A stretch of 64,000 bases of DNA from an uncultured PS1 clade bacterium (lineage in GTDB: Bacteria; Pseudomonadota; Alphaproteobacteria; MED-G09). Positions 39,253 to 49,201 of the stretch are shown here, piece by piece. The stretch's first letter is position 1; the number at the start of each line of letters is the position of its first letter. The notes under the pieces are model-generated. The model did not search any database and was not told the DNA's origin. It saw only the letters and a program-made list of their open reading frames with translations. The stretch covers positions 25,861 through 89,860 of the forward strand of contig CACLNZ010000002.1 of NCBI GenBank assembly GCA_902608415.1, in the 5' to 3' direction. The position numbers and the translations under genes are program-made.

Positions 39253-40206
39253 ATGACATTAGTTACTGTATTAAGCGCAAGTGGAAGACCTGGTCTAGCC
39301 CAGGTTCGACAACTTAAAAAAGCTGGATATGAAGTAAGAGGAACAACCAGAAATCCTGAAAGATTAAGTCAATTTGATGATATTGAAGTGGTTAGCGCTG
39401 ATTACAATGATCCGGACTCAGTTTATGAAGCATGTTTAGGAGCTGATTCAGTTTTCTATACTAGACCTTCATTTGAAGAATCACATAAAGCTCTTGATTT
39501 CGCAGCCACAGTAGGTTCTGCAGCAAAAAGGGCCAATGTAAGAAGACTTATTTATAATACTTGCTGTTGGGGTCCTCCAGAGGAATTGGGTGATGTAGGT
39601 CAAGCTGGCTATGATAGCGTTAAATTAATGATTAATACTTTAAAACAAGCTGGAGTCCAAACTACCACATTTCAACCAGTTCTATTTATGGATAATCTTT
39701 TAACTGATTGGGCCAGAGAAGATATAATGAATAACAACTTATATACATATCCTCACAACCCTAATCTTGAAGCAAGTTGGATATGTCTTGATGATGTAGC
39801 AAAATTTATGATTGCTGCCATTGATAGAGATGACCTAATTGGTAGGAATATAAATATTGGTGGACCAGAAGTATTTACTCCTCCAAGAGTTGCCGATCTT
39901 CTGTCAGGTTACTTTGGAAAACCAATCAAATATGAAGAGTTAAGTTTAGTTGATTTCTCTAATAGACTTTATGATATCTTTTTTGCTGAAATTGATGAAG
40001 ATATGAGAGGTGGCCGATCTGAAAATAGAGACGCCTTTATTGAAAGTATGTCAGATTTTTATAAATTTAATAATGTATCTGATCATAAGCCTTTCAAAGT
40101 TGATATGGCGCCTGTTTTAAAAGAAATACCAATTGAACTTACACCTTTTAGTGAATGGATTAGCCAACAAGATTGGAATGAAAAAGTTGATACGAAAGCA
40201 GGTTAA
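39253..40206 (+). CDS. NmrA-like NAD(P)-binding protein
   Basis: 317 aa. N-terminal VLSASGRPG Rossmann-like motif and NmrA/SDR-a5 layout. Confidence 0.65.
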   Translation: MTLVTVLSASGRPGLAQVRQLKKAGYEVRGTTRNPERLSQFDDIEVVSADYNDPDSVYEACLGADSVFYTRPSFEESHKALDFAATVGSAAKRANVRRLIYNTCCWGPPEELGDVGQAGYDSVKLMINTLKQAGVQTTTFQPVLFMDNLLTDWAREDIMNNNLYTYPHNPNLEASWICLDDVAKFMIAAIDRDDLIGRNINIGGPEVFTPPRVADLLSGYFGKPIKYEELSLVDFSNRLYDIFFAEIDEDMRGGRSENRDAFIESMSDFYKFNNVSDHKPFKVDMAPVLKEIPIELTPFSEWISQQDWNEKVDTKAG

Positions 40207-41258
40207 GAAAAGCTTTTATTAACTTGGCGAAGCTTTTTAAGGCCTGGAGAAAGATCCTTTTTCTTAAGTTGGTTCAAAGGTTTTTCAGTTGTAAGAAGTG
40301 TATCGTGAAGATCTTCTTCGTTTTGATCTAAATATATTAAACCGGTAATAATTTCTCCTTTGTCACGTGAGTCATTAATTTTACCAATTGCTTTTCTTCT
40401 ACTACCTGGATCATAACTTTTATTCAATTTATGAAGCACCATCTTTGAACCATCATGAACATTAACTTCAATTGATTTCCCTTCTCCATAGTTAACAGAA
40501 ATTTCTTCATTTTCTGGAATTACATCAAGGAATCCAACAGCTTCATTATGCTCTCTAAAATATTCATAGCTCTTAGTTGACTGAGCGTGATTATTAAAGG
40601 TAACGCAAGGTGAAATTACATCTATAAATGCAAAACCTTTATAACTAAGCGCTGCTCTAATTAAAGGTATCAATTGATCTTTATCTCCAGAAAAACTACG
40701 TGCAACAAATCCTGCTCCTAATTGAATAGCAAGAGCAGCTAGATCAATTGACTCAAACATGTTATCTACGCCTTTTCTACTCTTTGATTCTTTGTCATTA
40801 GTGGCTGAAAATTGACCTTTAGTTAAACCATATGTTCCATTATTTTCGCATATATAAACCATATTTAATCGTCTACGCATAATATGGCAAAATTGACCTA
40901 ATCCAATTGATGCCGTATCACCATCGCCAGATACACCTAGATAGTATAAATCTCTATTAGCTAAATTAGCTCCAGTAGCAACTGATGGCATTCTTCCATG
41001 CACGGAGTTAAAACCATGAGATTTATTTAAGAAATATGTAGGTGTTTTCGAAGAACATCCAATGCCAGAGAGTTTTGCTAACCTGTGAGCAGGTATAGAT
41101 AATTGAAAACATGCTTCAATAATAGCAGATGATACCGAGTCATGACCGCATCCTGCACATAAAGTAGATAAAGCCCCCTCATAATCTCTTCTTGTTAAAC
41201 CAAGTTTATTTTTTGGTAAATTAGGGTGTCTAGCTATTGGTTTTTTTATAAAACTCAT
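40203..41258 (-). CDS. korB: 2-oxoacid:ferredoxin oxidoreductase, beta (TPP-binding) subunit
   Basis: 351 aa. CAGCGHDS, GIGCSS and GDGD...NNGTYGLTKGQ TPP-binding blocks. Confidence 0.85.
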   Translation of the reverse strand: MSFIKKPIARHPNLPKNKLGLTRRDYEGALSTLCAGCGHDSVSSAIIEACFQLSIPAHRLAKLSGIGCSSKTPTYFLNKSHGFNSVHGRMPSVATGANLANRDLYYLGVSGDGDTASIGLGQFCHIMRRRLNMVYICENNGTYGLTKGQFSATNDKESKSRKGVDNMFESIDLAALAIQLGAGFVARSFSGDKDQLIPLIRAALSYKGFAFIDVISPCVTFNNHAQSTKSYEYFREHNEAVGFLDVIPENEEISVNYGEGKSIEVNVHDGSKMVLHKLNKSYDPGSRRKAIGKINDSRDKGEIITGLIYLDQNEEDLHDTLLTTEKPLNQLKKKDLSPGLKKLRQVNKSFS

Positions 41259-41261
41259 TTT

Positions 41262-43103
41262 TTACGCCGCTGTTCTTGATCTCTTAACTTTTGCTACAAT
41301 TTTCTTATTGTTCTTAACTTTTGATTTAAATTCATCAACAATAAACTTTGCAGTCAATGGACTTCCATCAAAATTTAAAATGGAAACAAATTGATTTATA
41401 TCTATTTCTAGCTCATTTGAAATTAAAAATTTCATTTGTGCATCTCTATTTTGTTCAAGAATAAATAAGTGATTATTCTCGCTAATAAACTTTTCAAGCA
41501 CCCTATCAAATGGAAAGGAGCGAATACGAATCTTATTTATGTTGTAACCCTCCTCACTTAAATAATCTATTGCTTCGTCTACTGCAGGGGCCGTAGAACC
41601 AAAATAAATTAACCCTACATCAGTTTTATTTTTTGCATTTCTTCTAATTGATTTAGGTAAATATTTTGTGGATTTATTGAATTTTTTAGTAATTCGTAAA
41701 AGATTTTCAGCATTAATTCTTCCATCTTCAGTATATCCAGCAAAAGCGTCATGCGAAGTTCCTCTTGTAAAAAAAGATCCTTTACTTGGATGTGTCCCCG
41801 GAATAGTTCTATATGGAATTCCATCACCATCAATATCTAAATATCTTCCCCACATTTCAATTGAATCAAGGTCTTTAGCTGATAAAACCTTACCTCTATC
41901 AAAATTATGTTTATCATTATAACTCAATTCATCAACCACCCAGTCATTCATGCCAATATCCAAATCACTCATAAAAATTACAGGAGTTTGAAGTCTTTCC
42001 GCTATATCAAAGGCATCGACAGACATTTCAAAACATTCCCTAGGGTCAGAAGGAAAAAGGAGTATTTGTTTAGTATCACCATGAGAAGCATATGCTGAAG
42101 ATAAAATATCTGACTGTTGTGTTCTAGTTGGCATACCAGTAGATGGACCTCCTCTTTGAATATTAAAAAGAACCAGAGGTATTTCAGCAAAATATGCTAG
42201 ACCAAGAAATTCAGACATAAGAGATACACCTGGTCCTGAAGTAGCGGTAAAAGCTCTTGCGCCATTCCAATTAGCCCCTATAGCCATACCTATTGCCGAT
42301 AGCTCATCTTCAGCCTGAATAACAGCACCTTTAATATTACCCTTTAAATCAGATCTAAACATATGAAGATATTTTTCAAAGGCTTCAGCTAGTGATGTAG
42401 ACGGGGTAATAGGGTACCAAGAAGCAACAGTAGCACCTGCAAATATGCAGCCTAGACCAGAAGCTTCATTACCCTGTATCATAATCTTCTTACTTTTTTG
42501 GCGCATCAATTTTAATTGCAAATCAAAATCAGAAGATAAATTTTCTTGAGCATATTTTCGGCCTAAACCAAGTGCATGTAGATTTGGTTCAATTAATTTA
42601 GGCTTTTTTTGAAACTCTTCTTTTATCAAGCCCTTTAAAACAGAAATATCTATTTTAAAAAGAACAGATAAAGCGCCTAAGCAAATAATATTTTTGAATA
42701 ATTGTCTTTGTCTTGGGTCATCGTAATGCTCAGCACAAATACTGGCCATTGGTATCCCGATAACATTAATATCTTTTCTAGGAAACCTCCTCTCCATAGT
42801 GCTATCATAAATAAGGTAGCCACCTTTAACTAATTCCTTAAGATCAGATTGATATGTTTGCGGGTTTAAAGCTATTAGGCAATCTACACCGTCTCTTCTT
42901 GCCGTATAACCATCTTTATTCACTCGAATTTCATACCATGTTGGAAGTCCTTGAATATTTGATGGGAAGATATTTTTTGGGCTGACAGGGATGCCCATTC
43001 TAAAAATAGTTTTAGCAAACATTAGGTTTGCACTTGCAGACCCTGAACCATTAACATTAGCAAACTTAATTACAAAATCGTTTACTTTTGTCATTTCTTG
43101 CAT
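41262..43103 (-). CDS. korA: 2-oxoacid:ferredoxin oxidoreductase, alpha (fused gamma-alpha) subunit
   Basis: 613 aa. N-terminal VIKFANVNGSGSASAN followed by the pyrimidine-binding domain GNEASGLG...YPITPST. The start is either 43103 or the ATG at 43094, which forms an ATGA overlap with the upstream stop. Confidence 0.85.
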   Translation of the reverse strand: MQEMTKVNDFVIKFANVNGSGSASANLMFAKTIFRMGIPVSPKNIFPSNIQGLPTWYEIRVNKDGYTARRDGVDCLIALNPQTYQSDLKELVKGGYLIYDSTMERRFPRKDINVIGIPMASICAEHYDDPRQRQLFKNIICLGALSVLFKIDISVLKGLIKEEFQKKPKLIEPNLHALGLGRKYAQENLSSDFDLQLKLMRQKSKKIMIQGNEASGLGCIFAGATVASWYPITPSTSLAEAFEKYLHMFRSDLKGNIKGAVIQAEDELSAIGMAIGANWNGARAFTATSGPGVSLMSEFLGLAYFAEIPLVLFNIQRGGPSTGMPTRTQQSDILSSAYASHGDTKQILLFPSDPRECFEMSVDAFDIAERLQTPVIFMSDLDIGMNDWVVDELSYNDKHNFDRGKVLSAKDLDSIEMWGRYLDIDGDGIPYRTIPGTHPSKGSFFTRGTSHDAFAGYTEDGRINAENLLRITKKFNKSTKYLPKSIRRNAKNKTDVGLIYFGSTAPAVDEAIDYLSEEGYNINKIRIRSFPFDRVLEKFISENNHLFILEQNRDAQMKFLISNELEIDINQFVSILNFDGSPLTAKFIVDEFKSKVKNNKKIVAKVKRSRTAA

Positions 43104-44872
43104 CCATCATGGGACTGGGCCCCAAAATAAAAGAATTTTTGCATATCCCATGCACCAGTTGGACATCTCTCAGCACATAAGCCACAGTGCAAGCAAAGGT
43201 CTTCATCTTTGACCATAACTCTCTTCGTAGGTAATTTTCTAGAAACATATAAATCTTGCGCAAGATTAAGAGCTGGTACCCTAATATCTTCTCTTAACTC
43301 TTGTTCATCAGCATTTTGAATAAAATTGATACAATCTTCTGGGCATATATCGACACATGCATCACATTCAATACATCTTTTTTCTTCAAATACTGTTTGA
43401 ACATCACAATTTAGACATCTAGCAGCCTCTTCAAATGCCATTCTATCATCATAACCCAATTCAACTTCGACTTTTCTATCAGCTAAGGTAACTTTTGGGT
43501 CAGCATGAGGAACTGCTAATCTATCTACTTCCGCATAACCATTATCGTAAGACCATTCATGTAAGCCCATTTTTGTTGATTCAAGAAAAACATGAGGCTG
43601 AGGTCTTTTTTTAAGACTCTTATTATTACAAAATAAATCAATTGAAATTGCAGCTTGATGAGCATGTGCAACAGCCGTTATTATATTCTCTGGCCCCCAA
43701 GCAGAATCCCCACCAAAAAAAACTTTAGGTAAAGTTGATTGCATCGTTGTTCGATCAACAATTGGCATGTCCCATTCACCAAATTCAATACCAATATCTT
43801 TTTCAATCCACTCAAAAGCATTATCCTGACCAATAGCCATCAGGACATCATCACACTCAACAATTTCAATAGGCTCTCCTGTTGGTATGAGTTTTCTTCT
43901 TCCATCTTTATATTCGGCTTTTACTTTTTCAAACGCAACAGCTTTAAGCTTGCCATTTTCATGAATAAATTCTTTTGGAACATGGTTTTCGTAAATCGGA
44001 ATATTCTCCATTTCAGCTTCTTCAATTTCCCAATCTGAAGCTTTCATATCTACTTTTGGAGATCTGACATAAACTCTAACATCCTTACCACCAAGTCTTA
44101 TAGCAGTTCTACAACAATCCATTGCAGTATTTCCACCTCCAAGAACAATGACTTTCTTACCAATTTTTTTTACATGTTCAAATGCAACAGATGCTAGAAA
44201 GTCAATGCCAATATGGATGTTCTTATCACATTCTTCTCGACCAGGTATATTTAGATCTTTTCCTTTTGGTGCTCCTGTTCCAACAAAAACTGCATCAAAG
44301 TCTTCCTTTAAGAACTCTTTAAAACTTTTAATTTCTTTATTATATTGGACCTCAACTCCCATATTAATAATACGATCACACTCCTCATTTAGAACCTCTT
44401 CAGGAAGCCTAAATGATGGAATATTTGTTCGCATTAATCCGCCTGGAACAGGGTCTCTTTCAAATATTTTACATTCATAACCTAATGGCATTAAGTCTCG
44501 CGCAACTGCAAGAGAAACTGGTCCAGCTCCTAACAAGGCTATTTTTTTTCCGTTTTTCTGCTCGGGTGCCTTAGGTATTAAATGATCTATTTCGCCTTTA
44601 TAATCAGCAGCTACTCTTTTTAGTCGACATATAGCAACTGGCTCATCCTCCACACGAACCCTTCTGCAGGCGGGTTCACAAGGTCGATCGCAAGTCCTTC
44701 CAAGAATTCCCGGAAATACATTTGACTCCCAATTAATCATATATGCATCTGTATATCTTCCAGCCGCGATTAACCGAATATATTCTGGAACGGGTGTGTG
44801 GGCAGGACAAGCCCATTGACAATCAACTACTTTGTGAAAGTATTCTGGATTCGATATTTTAGTCGGCTTCAT
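43091..44872 (-). CDS. GltD/NfnB-like NAD(P)H:FAD oxidoreductase fused to a C-terminal 2x[4Fe-4S] ferredoxin domain
   Basis: 593 aa. It has an N-terminal Cys cluster (CDRPCEPAC), two dinucleotide folds (LLGAGPVSLAVA, VLGGGNTAMDC) and C-terminal CIECDACVDICP and CLHCGLCAERCP. Confidence 0.8.
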   Translation of the reverse strand: MKPTKISNPEYFHKVVDCQWACPAHTPVPEYIRLIAAGRYTDAYMINWESNVFPGILGRTCDRPCEPACRRVRVEDEPVAICRLKRVAADYKGEIDHLIPKAPEQKNGKKIALLGAGPVSLAVARDLMPLGYECKIFERDPVPGGLMRTNIPSFRLPEEVLNEECDRIINMGVEVQYNKEIKSFKEFLKEDFDAVFVGTGAPKGKDLNIPGREECDKNIHIGIDFLASVAFEHVKKIGKKVIVLGGGNTAMDCCRTAIRLGGKDVRVYVRSPKVDMKASDWEIEEAEMENIPIYENHVPKEFIHENGKLKAVAFEKVKAEYKDGRRKLIPTGEPIEIVECDDVLMAIGQDNAFEWIEKDIGIEFGEWDMPIVDRTTMQSTLPKVFFGGDSAWGPENIITAVAHAHQAAISIDLFCNNKSLKKRPQPHVFLESTKMGLHEWSYDNGYAEVDRLAVPHADPKVTLADRKVEVELGYDDRMAFEEAARCLNCDVQTVFEEKRCIECDACVDICPEDCINFIQNADEQELREDIRVPALNLAQDLYVSRKLPTKRVMVKDEDLCLHCGLCAERCPTGAWDMQKFFYFGAQSHDGCKK

Positions 44873-44904: not shown

Positions 44905-44925
44905 AATCAATTTTAAAAATTGATT
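44905..44925. other. 10-bp inverted repeat AATCAATTTT-A-AAAATTGATT upstream of the korAB operon
   Basis: Read directly. It lies between the sucB stop and the GltD-like start. Confidence 0.25.
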
Positions 44926-44939
44926 TTCTAACTAATAAA

Positions 44940-44967
44940 ATTGACTTTATCTCTAGTCAATCAAAAT
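44940..44967 (-). terminator. weak AT-rich hairpin, possible sucAB terminator
   Basis: The minus strand reads ATTGACT-AGAGATAA-AGTCAAT followed by TTTATT. The 7-bp stem is AT-rich, so the prediction is weak. Confidence 0.3.
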
Positions 44968-45025: not shown

Positions 45026-46177
45026 TTAATCTTTATAGAGTTGATCTGGATTTTCTATTTTATTTTTTATATGAACAAGAAATGAAACAGCTTCTTTTCC
45101 ATCAATTATTCTGTGATCATAACTTAAGGCAAGATACATCATAGGTCTTATTTCAATTTTACCATCGATAGCTATAGGTCTATCTTGAATCTTATGCATT
45201 CCAAGAATAGCAGTTTGGGGTGCATTTAATATTGGTGTCGATAAAAGTGATCCAAAAACTCCTCCATTGGAAATAGTGAATGTACCACCCTGCATTTCCT
45301 CAATAGTAAGCTTACCTTCCCGAGCTTTTTCAGAGTATTTTAGTGTTAATTTTTCTATATCGCTAATATTCAATAAATCTGCATCTTTAATAATTGGAAC
45401 AGTTAATCCTCTATCAGTAGAAACAGCTACTCCAATATCTTTAAAGCCATGGAAAACAATGTCTTCACCATCAATACTTGCATTAACTTGAGGGTATTCA
45501 TTTAAAGCGCTAACCGCAGCAGATACAAAAAATCCCATATATCCTAATTTTATTTGATTTTTTTTAAAGAAATCTTCGCCTTTCTGTTCTCTTATTTTCA
45601 TTATTTCAGTCATATCAACTTCATTAAAAGTTGTGAGCATCGCAGTTTCCCTTTGAACATTCACTAAACGTTCAGCAACCGTTTTTCTTAATCTGCTCAT
45701 GGGTATCCTTTTGGTCTCTCTCACTGCTTCTTCTTTTGTTATTCCTTCTTTATTAGAAATATAATTCAATAAATCTTGTTTGATAATCCGGCCTGATTTA
45801 CCAGTGCCCTTTATAAGACTTAAATCTATCTCATTCTCTTGAGCAAATTTATTTACTGAATTACTAATTAACGCTTCTTTATTTTCTATTTTAGGTTTTT
45901 GCTCTTTTTTGGATTTTTTTTCTTTAATTAATTCACTTTCACCAACTTCATATTCACCAATAACTTCTCCACTGTTCACTACCTCGCCCTCAGCTTTGAA
46001 AATTTTAGTCATAATGCCATCATTAGCCGCTACCACCTCAATAACAACTTTATCAGTTTCAATTTCTGCTAAAACTTCATCTTGAATAATAATTTCACCT
46101 TCTAATTTTTTCCAATTAGCTATTACGCCTTCTTCAACTGATTCAGGGTATGTTGGCGATAAAATATTTTCCTTCAT
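45026..46177 (-). CDS. sucB: dihydrolipoamide succinyltransferase (E2 of 2-oxoglutarate dehydrogenase)
   Basis: 383 aa. Lipoyl domain [12 protein letters not shown]3-binding domain and catalytic [10 protein letters not shown]. Confidence 0.9.
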
Positions 46178-46180
46178 TTT

Positions 46181-49015
46181 TTAGTCCTTACCTAGAGTTA
46201 AATCGATTAATCTTTTTTGTTGTTCAATATGTATTTTCATTTGCCCTACAGCTGGAGCAGATGATGGCGGCCTACTCATCAATCTAAATTCTTTCTTTAA
46301 ACCAACATTATCTAGGACTCTATTTAATCTATGTCTTTGACCATACCATGCTCCCTGATTTCTTGGCTCCTCCTGGCACCAAATAAATTCTGAAGCATTT
46401 TTATATTTGCTTAATATTTTTTCAGTTTCTTTATAAGGAAATGGATATAATTGCTCTAACCGAATAATTGCTACATCACTTTGATTATTTTCATCTTTTT
46501 GTTTTTTTAGATCATGGTATATCTTTCCACTACAAAGAATTACCTTTCTTAGTTTTTTTGTTAAATTTGACTCATCATCAAAAATATTTTGAAATTTTCC
46601 TGATGTAACTTCATCAATATTTGAAGATGCATGTTTATTTCTTAACAAACTCTTAGGAGTAATAACAATAAGAGGTGTTCTAAAATTTCTAATAGCTTGT
46701 CTTCTTAGAAGATGAAACATTTGGGCCGCTGTACTAGGCATACATATTTGTATGTTTTGTTCAGCACATAACTGAAGAAATCGCTCTATACGAGCGCTAC
46801 TATGCTCAGGCCCCATACCCTCATATCCATGCGGTAATAAAAGAACTAAACCTGATAATCTTTCCCACTTATGCTGTGCGCTTGCAATAAATTGGTCTAT
46901 TACAACTTGGGCTCCATTAGAAAAATCACCAAATTGGGCTTCCCAAATCACTAGACCGGTTGGCCATGTTGAAGCGTAACCATACTCAAAGCCTAAGACT
47001 GCCTCCTCTGATAATATTGAGTCATAGATTCCAATGTTTGTATTTCCTTTTTCTGCAAATTTATTCAATGGATAATAAGTTCTCCCATCCTCTTGATCAA
47101 ACATCACAGCGTGTCTGTGATCAAATGTTCCTCTTCTTATATCTTGGCCACTAAATCTAATTGGGTATCCTTCACGCAAAAGACTCGAATATGCAGCAAT
47201 CTCAGCAAATCCCCAGTTAAAATTCAGCTTTCCTTCAGCCATGTCTATTCTTTGCTTAATTATATTTTTGACTTTTTTTTGTAAAGTAAAGCCATTTGGA
47301 ATATTAGCGACTGTTCGAGCATCACTAATAAGTTGATCTTGTTTGACAGCTGTATCAGTATTTTCATCCCACTTAGCATCAATGAACTGGTCCCAATCAA
47401 ACCATAAGTCATCATTTTTTATTTCGGATAAATTATGAGCAACGCTTTCACCTTTTTCAATTGCTGATCTATAAGATTTTTTAAATTCATCAAACTCTTC
47501 CAAAGTAATATCATTATTTTGGATTAATTTATCTTTATACAATTTCAATACAGATGGATGCTGTTTAATTTTCTTATACATTACTGGTTGCGTTGAAGAT
47601 GGATCATCTGCTTCATTATGGCCGCTTCTTCGGTAACCAACTAGATCAATAACAACATCTTTCTTAAATTCTTCACGATAATCTGAAGCTAATTTAGATA
47701 CATAAATTACTGCTTCGGGGTCATCAGCATTTACATGAAAAATTGGTACCTCAATAAACTTTGCTACATCTGTTGAATATCTTGTTGAACGTGAATCCTT
47801 TGGGTTATCAGTTGTGAATCCTATTTGATTATTTATGATAACATGGATAGTACCTCCAACTCCATATCCTCTAGTTTGTGACATTTGAAGTGTTTCCATA
47901 ACAACTCCCTGCCCACTAAATGAAGCATCACCATGAATTAGGATTGGTACAGCTTTATTTCTTTCTCTATCATTTAATCTATCTTGTCTTGCTCGAACAG
48001 ATCCAATTACAACTGGATCTACTATTTCTAAATGTGATGGATTATTCATTAAAGAGACATGAACATCACCATTAGTCGTACTTATATTTGATGAGAATCC
48101 TAAATGATATTTAACATCACCAGTATTGGTGCCTTTAAGGTCATAATTTTCTTCAAATTCGGCAAATAAATCTTTTGGTTTTTTTCCTAAGATATTTATC
48201 AGTAAATTTAATCTCCCTCTATGAGCCATTCCAAAACAAATTTGTTCAGCACTGTTTTTTGATGTCTGCTCAATTAAGGTATCCATTAGAGGTATTAAAG
48301 ATTCACATCCGTCTATCCCAAATCTTTTCATGCCAGGGTATTTTGCAGATAAATATTTTGCCAAACCTCTTGCAGAAATTAGTCTTTTCAAAATAAAGAT
48401 TTTTTCTTCTAAATTTATTTTTTTGTAATCATTATTTTCAAATCTATCTATTATCCAATTTCTCTCTCTTTCGTCAGATATATGAGAAAATTCTAGACCT
48501 ATGTTGCCACCATATTTTTTTGTAATGGAATCCTTTAACTCTTTTAAAAAGATTTTATTTTTTGAACCTTTAGGATAATCATTTCCAACACGTTCTTCAA
48601 GATTTGTGTTTTCCAATAATTTTTCAGCATAAATCAAATCAATATGAATATCTTTCTGAGCTAATTGGAGCGGATCTAATTCGGCAGCTGTATGGCCAAA
48701 GCTTCTATAGGCATCAATATAGTAATTAACCTTGCCATAAACAGTTAATGGTAATGTTTTTTGAAAGTATCCATTACTAATCTTTTTATATTCTTTTTTA
48801 TTATTTTTATTCTTTCTTAATTTATTCTTAAAACTATCTACAACTTCTGAATAGATAACATCATCTTTATAACCGCCTGTCTCAGAAAGAGATGCAAAAA
48901 GATCTTTCCAATCATTTGATATGACATCCGGATTATTTAAAAAAGTTTCATAAAGCTTATCAAGATAGGATAAATGACCGCCTGACAAATGGGAATCAGA
49001 ATAATGTTCTTCCAT
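46181..49015 (-). CDS. sucA: 2-oxoglutarate dehydrogenase E1 component
   Basis: The ORF is open to 49171. MEEHYSDSHLSGGHLSYLDKLYETF (ATG 49015) matches the usual SucA N-terminus, and ATG 49084 is an alternative. E1o blocks GMAHRGRLN and HGDA.F.GQG are present. Confidence 0.9.
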   Translation of the reverse strand: MEEHYSDSHLSGGHLSYLDKLYETFLNNPDVISNDWKDLFASLSETGGYKDDVIYSEVVDSFKNKLRKNKNNKKEYKKISNGYFQKTLPLTVYGKVNYYIDAYRSFGHTAAELDPLQLAQKDIHIDLIYAEKLLENTNLEERVGNDYPKGSKNKIFLKELKDSITKKYGGNIGLEFSHISDERERNWIIDRFENNDYKKINLEEKIFILKRLISARGLAKYLSAKYPGMKRFGIDGCESLIPLMDTLIEQTSKNSAEQICFGMAHRGRLNLLINILGKKPKDLFAEFEENYDLKGTNTGDVKYHLGFSSNISTTNGDVHVSLMNNPSHLEIVDPVVIGSVRARQDRLNDRERNKAVPILIHGDASFSGQGVVMETLQMSQTRGYGVGGTIHVIINNQIGFTTDNPKDSRSTRYSTDVAKFIEVPIFHVNADDPEAVIYVSKLASDYREEFKKDVVIDLVGYRRSGHNEADDPSSTQPVMYKKIKQHPSVLKLYKDKLIQNNDITLEEFDEFKKSYRSAIEKGESVAHNLSEIKNDDLWFDWDQFIDAKWDENTDTAVKQDQLISDARTVANIPNGFTLQKKVKNIIKQRIDMAEGKLNFNWGFAEIAAYSSLLREGYPIRFSGQDIRRGTFDHRHAVMFDQEDGRTYYPLNKFAEKGNTNIGIYDSILSEEAVLGFEYGYASTWPTGLVIWEAQFGDFSNGAQVVIDQFIASAQHKWERLSGLVLLLPHGYEGMGPEHSSARIERFLQLCAEQNIQICMPSTAAQMFHLLRRQAIRNFRTPLIVITPKSLLRNKHASSNIDEVTSGKFQNIFDDESNLTKKLRKVILCSGKIYHDLKKQKDENNQSDVAIIRLEQLYPFPYKETEKILSKYKNASEFIWCQEEPRNQGAWYGQRHRLNRVLDNVGLKKEFRLMSRPPSSAPAVGQMKIHIEQQKRLIDLTLGKD

Positions 49016-49201
49016 AGTTTTGTTAAAACTACTTTTACTCTTTTTACCTTTATTTTTATTACTAGAGTTTATTTCAGGTTTCATCCGAAGGCCTTTATAA
49101 TAGTCCTCCCCCTGAACCATAAAAATTCCAAAATTTCTACAATTAATAAATCTGACTGCTGTAATAGTCAATAATCTTCGGGAACTGTGACAAATGATTA
49201 T

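Follow-up and report, generated by a model that had tools for sequence, protein, structure and literature searches.

The 64,000-nucleotide stretch that was analysed (the window) carries three consecutive genes for a flavoprotein and the two subunits of a 2-oxoacid oxidoreductase, all read from the minus strand (Table 1). The TGA stop codon of the flavoprotein gene and the korA ATG at 43103 create a 13-nt overlap (an alternative korA start at 43094 would shorten it to a 4-nt ATGA overlap), and the korB ATG comes 3 nt after the TAA stop of korA. The ORFs, domain architectures and junctions described in an earlier note on this DNA were borne out by the ORF coordinates and by Pfam and NCBIfam domain assignments. 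No intrinsic terminator-like sites were found on the minus strand in the 153-nt gap between sucB and the flavoprotein gene or at the gene junctions; a single terminator consensus match lies within the flavoprotein gene, and the sites were in total no more numerous than in shuffled sequence.

Table 1. Features of the kor locus and its surroundings, in window coordinates
Feature	Position	Strand	Size and remarks
Fe-S flavoprotein subunit (KorC here; 'alpha' subunit of Azoarcus KGOR)	43091..44872	-	593 aa, 67.0 kDa
korA, fused gamma+alpha, two-subunit-type 2-oxoacid:acceptor oxidoreductase	41262..43103	-	613 aa, 68.7 kDa
korB, TPP-binding beta subunit, one [4Fe-4S] cluster	40203..41258	-	351 aa, 38.6 kDa
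sucA-sucB (2-oxoglutarate dehydrogenase E1, E2)	45026..49084	-	neighbouring operon outside the module; NCBIfam equivalog models above cut-off
Promoter-like element upstream of the flavoprotein gene	44932..44960	-	TTGACT, 17-nt spacer, TATTAG; dyad TTGACT-N8-AGTCAA
Second copy of the promoter-like element, upstream of sucA	49143..49171	-	TTGACT, 17 nt, TATTAA

The KorA and KorB sequences match the criteria expected of a two-subunit-type 2-oxoacid:acceptor oxidoreductase, to which we assign them by the alpha-subunit model cut-off, the TPP motif and four cluster cysteines. KorA contains the Pfam domains POR and POR_N, scores above the cut-off of TIGR03710 (OAFO_sf alpha; 566.7 bits against 482.75) and has a YPITP motif at 230-234 that is invariant across orthologues; its top match among solved structures is the OGOR of Magnetococcus (6n2n_A, 235.7 bits), with the Sulfolobus enzyme at 186.7. 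KorB, with TPP_enzyme_C and PFO_beta_C domains, falls below the cut-off of TIGR02177 (PorB_KorB beta; 193.9 bits against 261.9), and its C34, C37, C68 and C218 and the GDGD motif at 111-114 are invariant across orthologues. The solved chains that it matches, 5b48_B (305 aa) and 6n2n_B (292 aa), give equal scores, and its C-terminus is about 50 aa longer than in the solved two-subunit enzymes.

The flavoprotein has three parts: a GltD/NfnB-type N-terminal Fe-S region (Fer4_20, residues 17-92), FAD and NAD(P)H folds (Pyr_redox_2, 110-404, where GxGxxG/A/S motifs start at 115 and 245) and, at the C-terminus, a 2x[4Fe-4S] ferredoxin domain (Fer4_7, 499-574), in which CxxCxxCxxxCP motifs begin at 500 and 560. 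A CLNC pair at 486/489 follows the flavin body, and the cysteines at 18, 22, 61, 65, 69, 82, 486, 489, 500, 503, 506, 510, 560, 563, 566 and 570 are invariant among 32 orthologues. After the second Rossmann motif the strand ends in V-R-S, with an invariant R270 and no acidic residue, a pattern that appears compatible with NADPH, as would be expected for a binder of the 2'-phosphate. The best-matching characterised relatives (NfnB, GltD and DPD) are NADPH enzymes, and the nearest solved chains are 9n5u_A and NfnI 5jca_L; published work places the flavoprotein (alpha) subunit of KGOR among the GltD/NfnB homologues (PMC10134865). An AlphaFold2 model computed from 32 aligned rows was of low quality throughout the Fe-S regions (mean pLDDT 65.7, and below 50 at 425-510 and 560-593). 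GltD itself was considered and rejected as an identity, the scores being 181.6 against a cut-off of 447.7 for TIGR01317 and 212.1 against 482.95 for TIGR01318, and all GltD and Nfn-type NCBIfam models stayed below cut-off. A search of the 83%-complete assembly for GltB (PF01645, Glu_synthase) returned one marginal, partial match (23.5 bits against a cut-off of 20.4, profile positions 193-305 of 369); as GltB was not found in this assembly, the flavoprotein is not read as a glutamate synthase subunit. Annotation pipelines call it 'FAD-dependent oxidoreductase', 'formate dehydrogenase beta subunit' or 'glutamate synthase-like'. Elsewhere in the literature, 'KorC' denotes the gamma subunit of four-subunit enzymes, and a literature search on the EbN1 kor genes (below) and on korABC-type naming returned nothing useful.

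Of 80 loci where the available DNA was long enough, nearly all preserve the arrangement flavoprotein-korA-korB; these loci are counted as spanning five phyla and belong to Alpha- and Gammaproteobacteria, Bacteroidota, Verrucomicrobiota and Acidobacteriota. The junctions are short or overlapping, the first ranging from -31 to +114 nt. This synteny upholds the proposal that the three genes form one unit. The relatives include a marine group at 72% identity. Within the Alphaproteobacteria, korC was present in 29 of 297 high-quality genomes (approximately 10%).

A three-subunit 2-oxoglutarate:NADP+ oxidoreductase is said to have been purified from Azoarcus evansii by Ebenau-Jehle, Boll and Fuchs in 2003 (J Bacteriol 185:6119), with subunits of reportedly 63, 62 and 37 kDa. 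Orthology was assessed with Aromatoleum aromaticum EbN1, a sister species of A. evansii, the source of the purified enzyme. On plasmid 2 of EbN1 (NC_006824.1, 4890-9594) the three genes recur in this order with ATGA overlaps, and the flavoprotein, KorA and KorB are 61, 56 and 61% identical to their counterparts over their full length (581 aa for the flavoprotein); in a concatenated tree the EbN1 cluster nests within the family of the present proteins. The calculated masses of KorA, flavoprotein and KorB (those in Table 1, and 67.8, 65.0 and 37.5 kDa in EbN1) fit the values reported for the A. evansii subunits. The three genes thus probably encode a three-subunit 2-oxoglutarate:NADP+ oxidoreductase of the A. 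evansii KGOR type, a prediction in which both substrate and nucleotide specificity are carried over from a cluster of about 60% identity in the sister species of the enzyme's source. The earlier note had named prior biochemical characterisation of this module in relatives as grounds for refutation, and novelty is indeed not supported, since EbN1 holds orthologues and the enzyme was reportedly purified from that genus. The module is an ordinary, poorly annotated example of a known enzyme type and no new kind of system.

In the proposed mechanism, KorA and KorB, with TPP and CoA, would decarboxylate 2-oxoglutarate oxidatively to succinyl-CoA and CO2, and the two electrons would exit by way of KorB's single [4Fe-4S] cluster. 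They would then pass to the C-terminal 2x[4Fe-4S] ferredoxin-like domain of the flavoprotein, which would stand in for the missing delta subunit or for free ferredoxin, and onward via the GltD/NfnB-type clusters to FAD and NADP+. The arrangement originally suggested, in which the flavoprotein links the 2-oxoacid oxidoreductase to NADP(H) and no free ferredoxin takes part, remains the most plausible one, given that a ferredoxin domain is fused to the flavoprotein and that the genes are translationally coupled. A co-fold of KorB with the flavoprotein, from which KorA was left out, is consistent with a physical complex: it scored 0.59 against 0.00 for the best control, with at least 88% of contacts agreeing between runs and a partner pLDDT of at least 86. 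The tool grades this result as 'weak support'; in its calibration, 58 of 80 solved complexes and 2 of 110 mismatched pairs attained the mark, but at scores of 0.60 or below only 7 of the 80 did, along with both mismatches. The standard potentials are approximately -520 mV for succinyl-CoA + CO2/2-oxoglutarate and -320 mV for NADP+/NADPH, a drop of approximately 200 mV that would in effect confine the reaction to the oxidative direction. It would run parallel to the NADH-forming, lipoate-dependent SucAB complex. Enzymes of the KGOR type are usually oxygen-sensitive, and tolerance in this aerobe is assumed.

The neighbouring sucB and sucA occupy 45026-46177 and, as an ORF, 46181-49171, the 5' end of sucA being uncertain (49015, 49084 or 49120). 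A foreign origin of sucAB by horizontal gene transfer was considered and is not shown, since the window's SucA is closest to that of a sister genus (56-58% identity, against at most 47% elsewhere in the class). Lipoamide dehydrogenase was not found in this 83%-complete assembly, which we read as an assembly gap because congeners have the gene beside sucCD. The promoter-like element upstream of the flavoprotein gene was missed by the consensus promoter scan because the scan accepts only -10 hexamers that end in T. In sister genera an NTF2-like gene directly abuts korC with no intervening sucAB. The region upstream of korC in sister genera retains the -35-like TTGACT and the greater part of the element whatever gene precedes it, and the right arm of the dyad varies; the window has a single occurrence of the exact dyad. 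The element also lies upstream of sucA in two congeners (G005 and G008), and it is absent upstream of sucA in sister genus g2, whose sucAB is located elsewhere. An Rfam search of the upstream region gave nothing above threshold.

Within the OCS116-type family, genomes hold kor only, sucAB only, or both. Three of them (G001, 95% complete; G013, 90%; G015, 95%) have korC and SucC, with neither SucA nor an above-cut-off SucB, and two others (G014 and G016) have sucA only. None of the family's genomes of at least 90% completeness is without both kor and sucAB, which supports 2-oxoglutarate as the substrate; in the relatives without sucAB, conversion of 2-oxoglutarate to succinyl-CoA would depend on the kor enzyme alone. 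This complementarity is confined to one family of related genomes. Across the Alphaproteobacteria, all 29 korC-positive genomes of the 297 sampled hold sucA, so that neither enzyme may simply stand in for the other, and the 'unexpected redundancy' that the earlier note saw in their coexistence is in fact the rule. The adjacency of sucAB, likewise, is limited to part of one genus and is no general feature of the module, although kor-sucAB linkage arose independently in the window's genus and in three Bacteroidota loci. A joint reading of these observations, which we offer tentatively, is that this 'anaerobic-type' Fe-S/TPP enzyme may, within the OCS116-type family, be a working, oxygen-exposed, NADPH-yielding step of the TCA cycle, and the sole 2-oxoglutarate-to-succinyl-CoA route where sucAB was lost (one genus and a subclade of the window's genus). 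In the window's own subclade, sucAB may have been re-inserted immediately ahead of kor, preceded by a copy of its promoter, and the NADH- and NADPH-forming enzymes would then be co-regulated.

Several alternatives to NADP+-linked oxidation of 2-oxoglutarate were weighed. An enzyme of the same architecture and with the same path to NAD(P)+ might act on another 2-oxoacid (pyruvate, glyoxylate, or a branched-chain or aromatic substrate) or have broad specificity, as the generic 2-oxoacid:acceptor scope of TIGR03710 and the equal KorB scores for the broad-specificity Sulfolobus enzyme and the Magnetococcus OGOR would permit. We consider this unlikely, in view of the higher KorA score for the OGOR, the orthology with the Aromatoleum cluster, the retention of succinyl-CoA synthetase in kor-only relatives that lack SucAB, and the independent linkages of kor with sucAB. 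It is also quite improbable that the flavoprotein uses NADH, or that it mainly passes electrons to free ferredoxin or flavodoxin, so that KorAB would be a ferredoxin-reducing enzyme with an accessory reductase. The A. evansii enzyme is reportedly also able to reduce ferredoxin and viologens, and sequence gives no secure nucleotide specificity. The NADPH enzymes among the best-matching relatives nevertheless argue against such a role, as does the V-R-S strand with its invariant R270 and lack of an acidic residue, and the fused ferredoxin domain and translational coupling favour an internal electron path. A study of marine SAR86 does take the KorAB of that group as ferredoxin-reducing (PMC11582366).

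Reversal of the module, giving an NADPH-driven 2-oxoglutarate synthase that carboxylates succinyl-CoA reductively, had been the other direction envisaged in the earlier note and appears highly improbable. OFORs are mechanistically reversible, and 6n2n, the closest solved relative of KorA, comes from what we take to be a reverse-TCA organism; by textbook potentials, however, the reaction would run approximately 200 mV, or roughly +38 kJ/mol, uphill, which makes it thermodynamically implausible, and the locus encodes neither a second exergonic acceptor nor an NfnA-like partner. The host, moreover, is a small heterotroph, and sucA accompanies kor throughout the kor-positive alphaproteobacterial genomes.

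Reading the trio as an NADP+-linked 2-oxoglutarate oxidoreductase would change how metabolic models account for the TCA cycle and for NADPH in abundant aerobes, the OCS116 group, SAR86, Halieaceae and Saprospiraceae among them, and would explain how the cycle is closed in relatives without sucAB. Marine genomics papers interpret the adjacent korAB as ferredoxin-reducing.

The closest known system is the KGOR of the Azoarcus/Aromatoleum type, which shares with the present locus three adjacent, coupled genes in the same order with the same subunit sizes, and the same complement of Fe-S/FAD/NADPH flavoprotein, fused gamma-alpha KorA and TPP/[4Fe-4S] KorB. The present operon, whose activity is a predicted one, is chromosomal and adjoins sucAB, whereas the EbN1 copy is on a plasmid; its host, an alphaproteobacterium of the OCS116 type, is marine, aerobic and streamlined and offers no benzoyl-CoA pathway context. 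NfnB, GltD and SudA (5jca_L, 4ylf_B and 2vdc_G; E-values 6e-71 to 1.8e-43) have the N-terminal Fe-S region and the FAD/NADPH folds in common with the flavoprotein. Unlike them, it has the extra C-terminal 2x[4Fe-4S] domain, its N-terminus is without the usual first CxxC pair, and the CLNC pair follows the flavin body; an NfnA or GltB partner was not found here. The two-subunit enzymes MmOGOR (6n2n), Thauera aromatica KorAB and Mycobacterium tuberculosis KOR share the KorA/KorB architecture, YPITP, GDGD and the single beta-subunit [4Fe-4S] cluster, and differ in the shorter KorB of two-subunit OGORs and in their use of free ferredoxin, in contrast to the dedicated flavoprotein with its built-in ferredoxin domain encoded here. 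The M. tuberculosis KOR reduced neither NAD+ nor NADP+ (PMC2773412).

The ORF check returned the three minus-strand genes at exactly the positions that the earlier note had given them, and all three elements of the architecture proposed for the flavoprotein (KorC, the GltD/NfnB-like Fe–S subunit) were found: a Fer4_20 domain of the dihydropyrimidine-dehydrogenase/GltD Fe–S type (residues 17–92), a nucleotide-binding pyridine-nucleotide-disulfide-oxidoreductase body (residues 110–404, with GxGxxG/A/S motifs at 115 and 245) and a C-terminal dicluster ferredoxin domain (CxxCxxCxxxCP motifs at 500 and 560). The flavoprotein and korA genes share 13 nt if korA starts at ATG 43103, or meet in an ATGA overlap if the alternative ATG at 43094 is used, and 3 nt separate the korA stop from the korB start. 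Assignment of the flavoprotein as a glutamate synthase subunit was ruled out, as all GltD models scored below their cut-offs; a search of the genome for PF01645 (Glu_synthase, the GltB large-subunit domain) gave one marginal partial match, at 23.5 bits versus a cut-off of 20.4.

Features of the kor operon and of the region upstream of sucA (window coordinates)
Feature	Position	Strand	Description
Flavoprotein (korC)	43091–44872	minus	593-aa ORF
korA	41262–43103	minus	613 aa; POR (gamma) and POR_N (alpha) domains; above the TIGR03710 curated cut-off
korB	40203–41258	minus	351 aa; TPP-binding beta subunit
Promoter-like element upstream of the flavoprotein gene	44932–44960		TTGACT, 17-nt spacer, TATTAG
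Second copy, upstream of sucA	49143–49171		TTGACT, 17-nt spacer, TATTAA

The cofactor ligands are strictly kept across the orthologues: the sixteen Fe–S cysteines of the flavoprotein are invariant, as are four cysteines and the GDGD motif of KorB and the YPITP motif of KorA. Among the sixteen is a CLNC pair (486/489) resembling the N-terminal CxxC pair of GltD-type proteins, which is missing here. From the domain order and the homology to NfnB and GltD, electrons would most likely start at the KorA/KorB TPP site and enter the KorB [4Fe–4S] cluster, pass to the two clusters of the flavoprotein ferredoxin domain, and move through the GltD-type clusters to FAD, where NADP+ would be reduced. Co-folding of KorB with the flavoprotein weakly supports a contact between them (score 0.59, best control 0.00, runs agreeing in at least 88% of contacts, partner pLDDT at least 86); in the calibration, 58 of 80 solved complexes passed the mark, as did 2 of 110 mismatched pairs, and those that passed it with scores of 0.60 or less were 7 of the 80 solved complexes and both mismatched pairs. 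As the 2-oxoglutarate couple lies at approximately −520 mV and NADP+ at −320 mV, the oxidative direction is strongly favored. The alternative, an NADPH-driven reductive carboxylase as the earlier note had allowed, is rejected, because carboxylation would be ~38 kJ/mol uphill from textbook potentials and no coupling partner is encoded near the kor locus.

Close homologues of the flavoprotein number in the thousands in protein searches, and 80 genome loci from Alpha- and Gammaproteobacteria (SAR86, Halieaceae, Spongiibacteraceae), Bacteroidota, Verrucomicrobiota and Acidobacteriota were compared. The order flavoprotein–korA–korB is kept in virtually all of the loci with sufficient DNA, bearing out the proposal that the three genes form a single unit; kor is a real, conserved operon. 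Across this set the flavoprotein/korA junction spans −31 to +114 nt and the korA/korB junction is mostly below 80 nt. Six loci, from Acidobacteriota, Bacteroidota and others (L055, L056, L067, L069, L016 and L047), have a korA–korB spacing of 0.5–2.2 kb, which suggests an inserted extra gene. A Flavobacteriales MAG (L071, JBIKWM010000002.1) carries a full-length flavoprotein orthologue (66% identity) whose 7-kb flanks on both sides contain neither korA nor korB, the sole such case with ample flanking DNA among the 80 loci. Flavoprotein identity across phyla is unusually high (66–72%), and the concatenated tree shows clear lateral transfers, with Verrucomicrobiaceae inside Spongiibacteraceae and Acidobacteriota inside Bacteroidota; a Cytophagales copy lies beside SAR86.

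Upstream of kor in the window lie sucA and sucB, the 2-oxoglutarate dehydrogenase E1 and E2 genes, with 153 nt between sucB and the flavoprotein gene. In sister genera an NTF2-like gene abuts the flavoprotein gene, and sucAB is interposed only in the subclade of the window; the sister-genus sucAB lies elsewhere, downstream of an apparent tRNA gene, and its SucA is 56–58% identical to that of the window. Judging from their upstream sequences, the kor and sucAB operons seem to share one promoter-like element. The korC-upstream element is largely retained in the family's other genera, including its −35-like TTGACT, irrespective of which gene lies upstream; the sucA-upstream copy occurs in the genome of the window (G000) and two congeners and is absent before sucA in the sister genus. 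Read-through from sucB into kor is possible, since no terminator-like site separates them. Between the promoter-like element and the flavoprotein Shine–Dalgarno sequence is a perfect 10+10 palindrome (44905–44925, AATCAATTTT-A-AAAATTGATT), which may be an operator or a 5′-UTR hairpin; sister genera retain only its TGATTCG portion.

The open reading frame of sucA extends upstream to 49171. Because of the promoter-like −10 at 49143–49148 and a TIGR00239 match that begins at ORF residue 62, the real start is placed downstream, with ATG 49120, 49084 and 49015 as candidates. A G-rich Shine–Dalgarno-like run (49103–49113) resembles that of the flavoprotein gene, although ~20 nt separate it from the closest ATG downstream. 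The usual alphaproteobacterial position of sucAB is between sucC(D) and the lipoamide dehydrogenase gene; in the family it is not found between sucC and that gene, even in genomes that possess sucAB. Three family genomes show sucC, a sucD-sized gap and the lipoamide dehydrogenase gene in succession (G001:C6:12339-15782, G008:C3:200403-203847, G013:C55:11670-15116). The G000 assembly (83% complete) has sucAB and no lipoamide dehydrogenase above cut-off; in congeners this gene shares a contig with kor, ~70 kb away, and in G000 it is probably in an unassembled stretch.

Among 297 alphaproteobacterial genomes (at least 90% complete, at most 5% contaminated), a flavoprotein orthologue was found in 29 (26 of 248 genera), and sucA is present in every one of these 29. 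Coexistence is the normal state and not the unexpected redundancy that had been supposed from the window. Two unpublished genomes, G231 and G058, are counted in the sucA tallies; each matches sucA but not korC, and no kor claim rests on either. Within the OCS116-type family of the window's organism, which includes the single-cell genome 'OCS116 cluster bacterium AG-390-A19', the two enzymes are distributed as tabulated.

Occurrence of kor and sucA in genomes of the family (completeness in parentheses)
Content	Genomes
kor and sucA	G000, G003, G005, G006, G008, G012, G018, G021
kor only	G001 (95%), G002, G011, G013 (90%), G015 (95%), G017
sucA only	G014 (96%), G016 (93%), G019, G020, G024

No family genome that is at least 90% complete lacks both. 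The best three kor-only genomes (G001, G013 and G015) have no SucB above cut-off and keep succinyl-CoA synthetase. This distribution fits both enzymes serving the same step, although, because the family genomes are kin, the pattern is no statistical test. In three Bacteroidota loci (L033, L062 and L067), sucA and sucB lie co-directionally downstream of korB, within ~1 kb, a second, independent linkage of kor with 2-oxoglutarate dehydrogenase genes.

Among solved structures, KorA is best matched by 6n2n, the 2-oxoglutarate enzyme of Magnetococcus. In 2003, Ebenau-Jehle, Boll and Fuchs reportedly purified from Azoarcus evansii a three-subunit 2-oxoglutarate:NADP+ oxidoreductase with FAD, TPP and Fe–S, its subunits said to be ~63, 62 and 37 kDa and its genes reportedly recognized as three adjacent Bradyrhizobium ORFs. 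The KGOR-alpha subunit of the A. evansii enzyme has been placed among the GltD/NfnB homologues in work citing the 2003 paper (PMC10134865). In a protein search of plasmid records, plasmid 2 of Aromatoleum aromaticum EbN1 proved to carry the three kor-type genes, whose annotation goes no further than 'FAD-dependent oxidoreductase' and the alpha and beta subunits of a 2-oxoacid oxidoreductase. These genes are joined by ATGA overlaps, their products are 61, 56 and 61% identical over full length to the window flavoprotein, KorA and KorB, respectively, and they nest within the family in the concatenated tree. In descending order, calculated masses are 67.8, 65.0 and 37.5 kDa for the EbN1 proteins and 68.7 (KorA), 67.0 (flavoprotein) and 38.6 (KorB) kDa for those of the window. 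With the enzyme type reportedly purified from A. evansii and an orthologous cluster in EbN1, the module most likely belongs to a kind already characterized in relatives, which the earlier note had named as a ground for refuting its claim. Rather than a new system, the kor finding offers an annotation correction and a kor/sucAB polymorphism within the family: the trio most likely belongs to an enzyme type that is known but poorly annotated.
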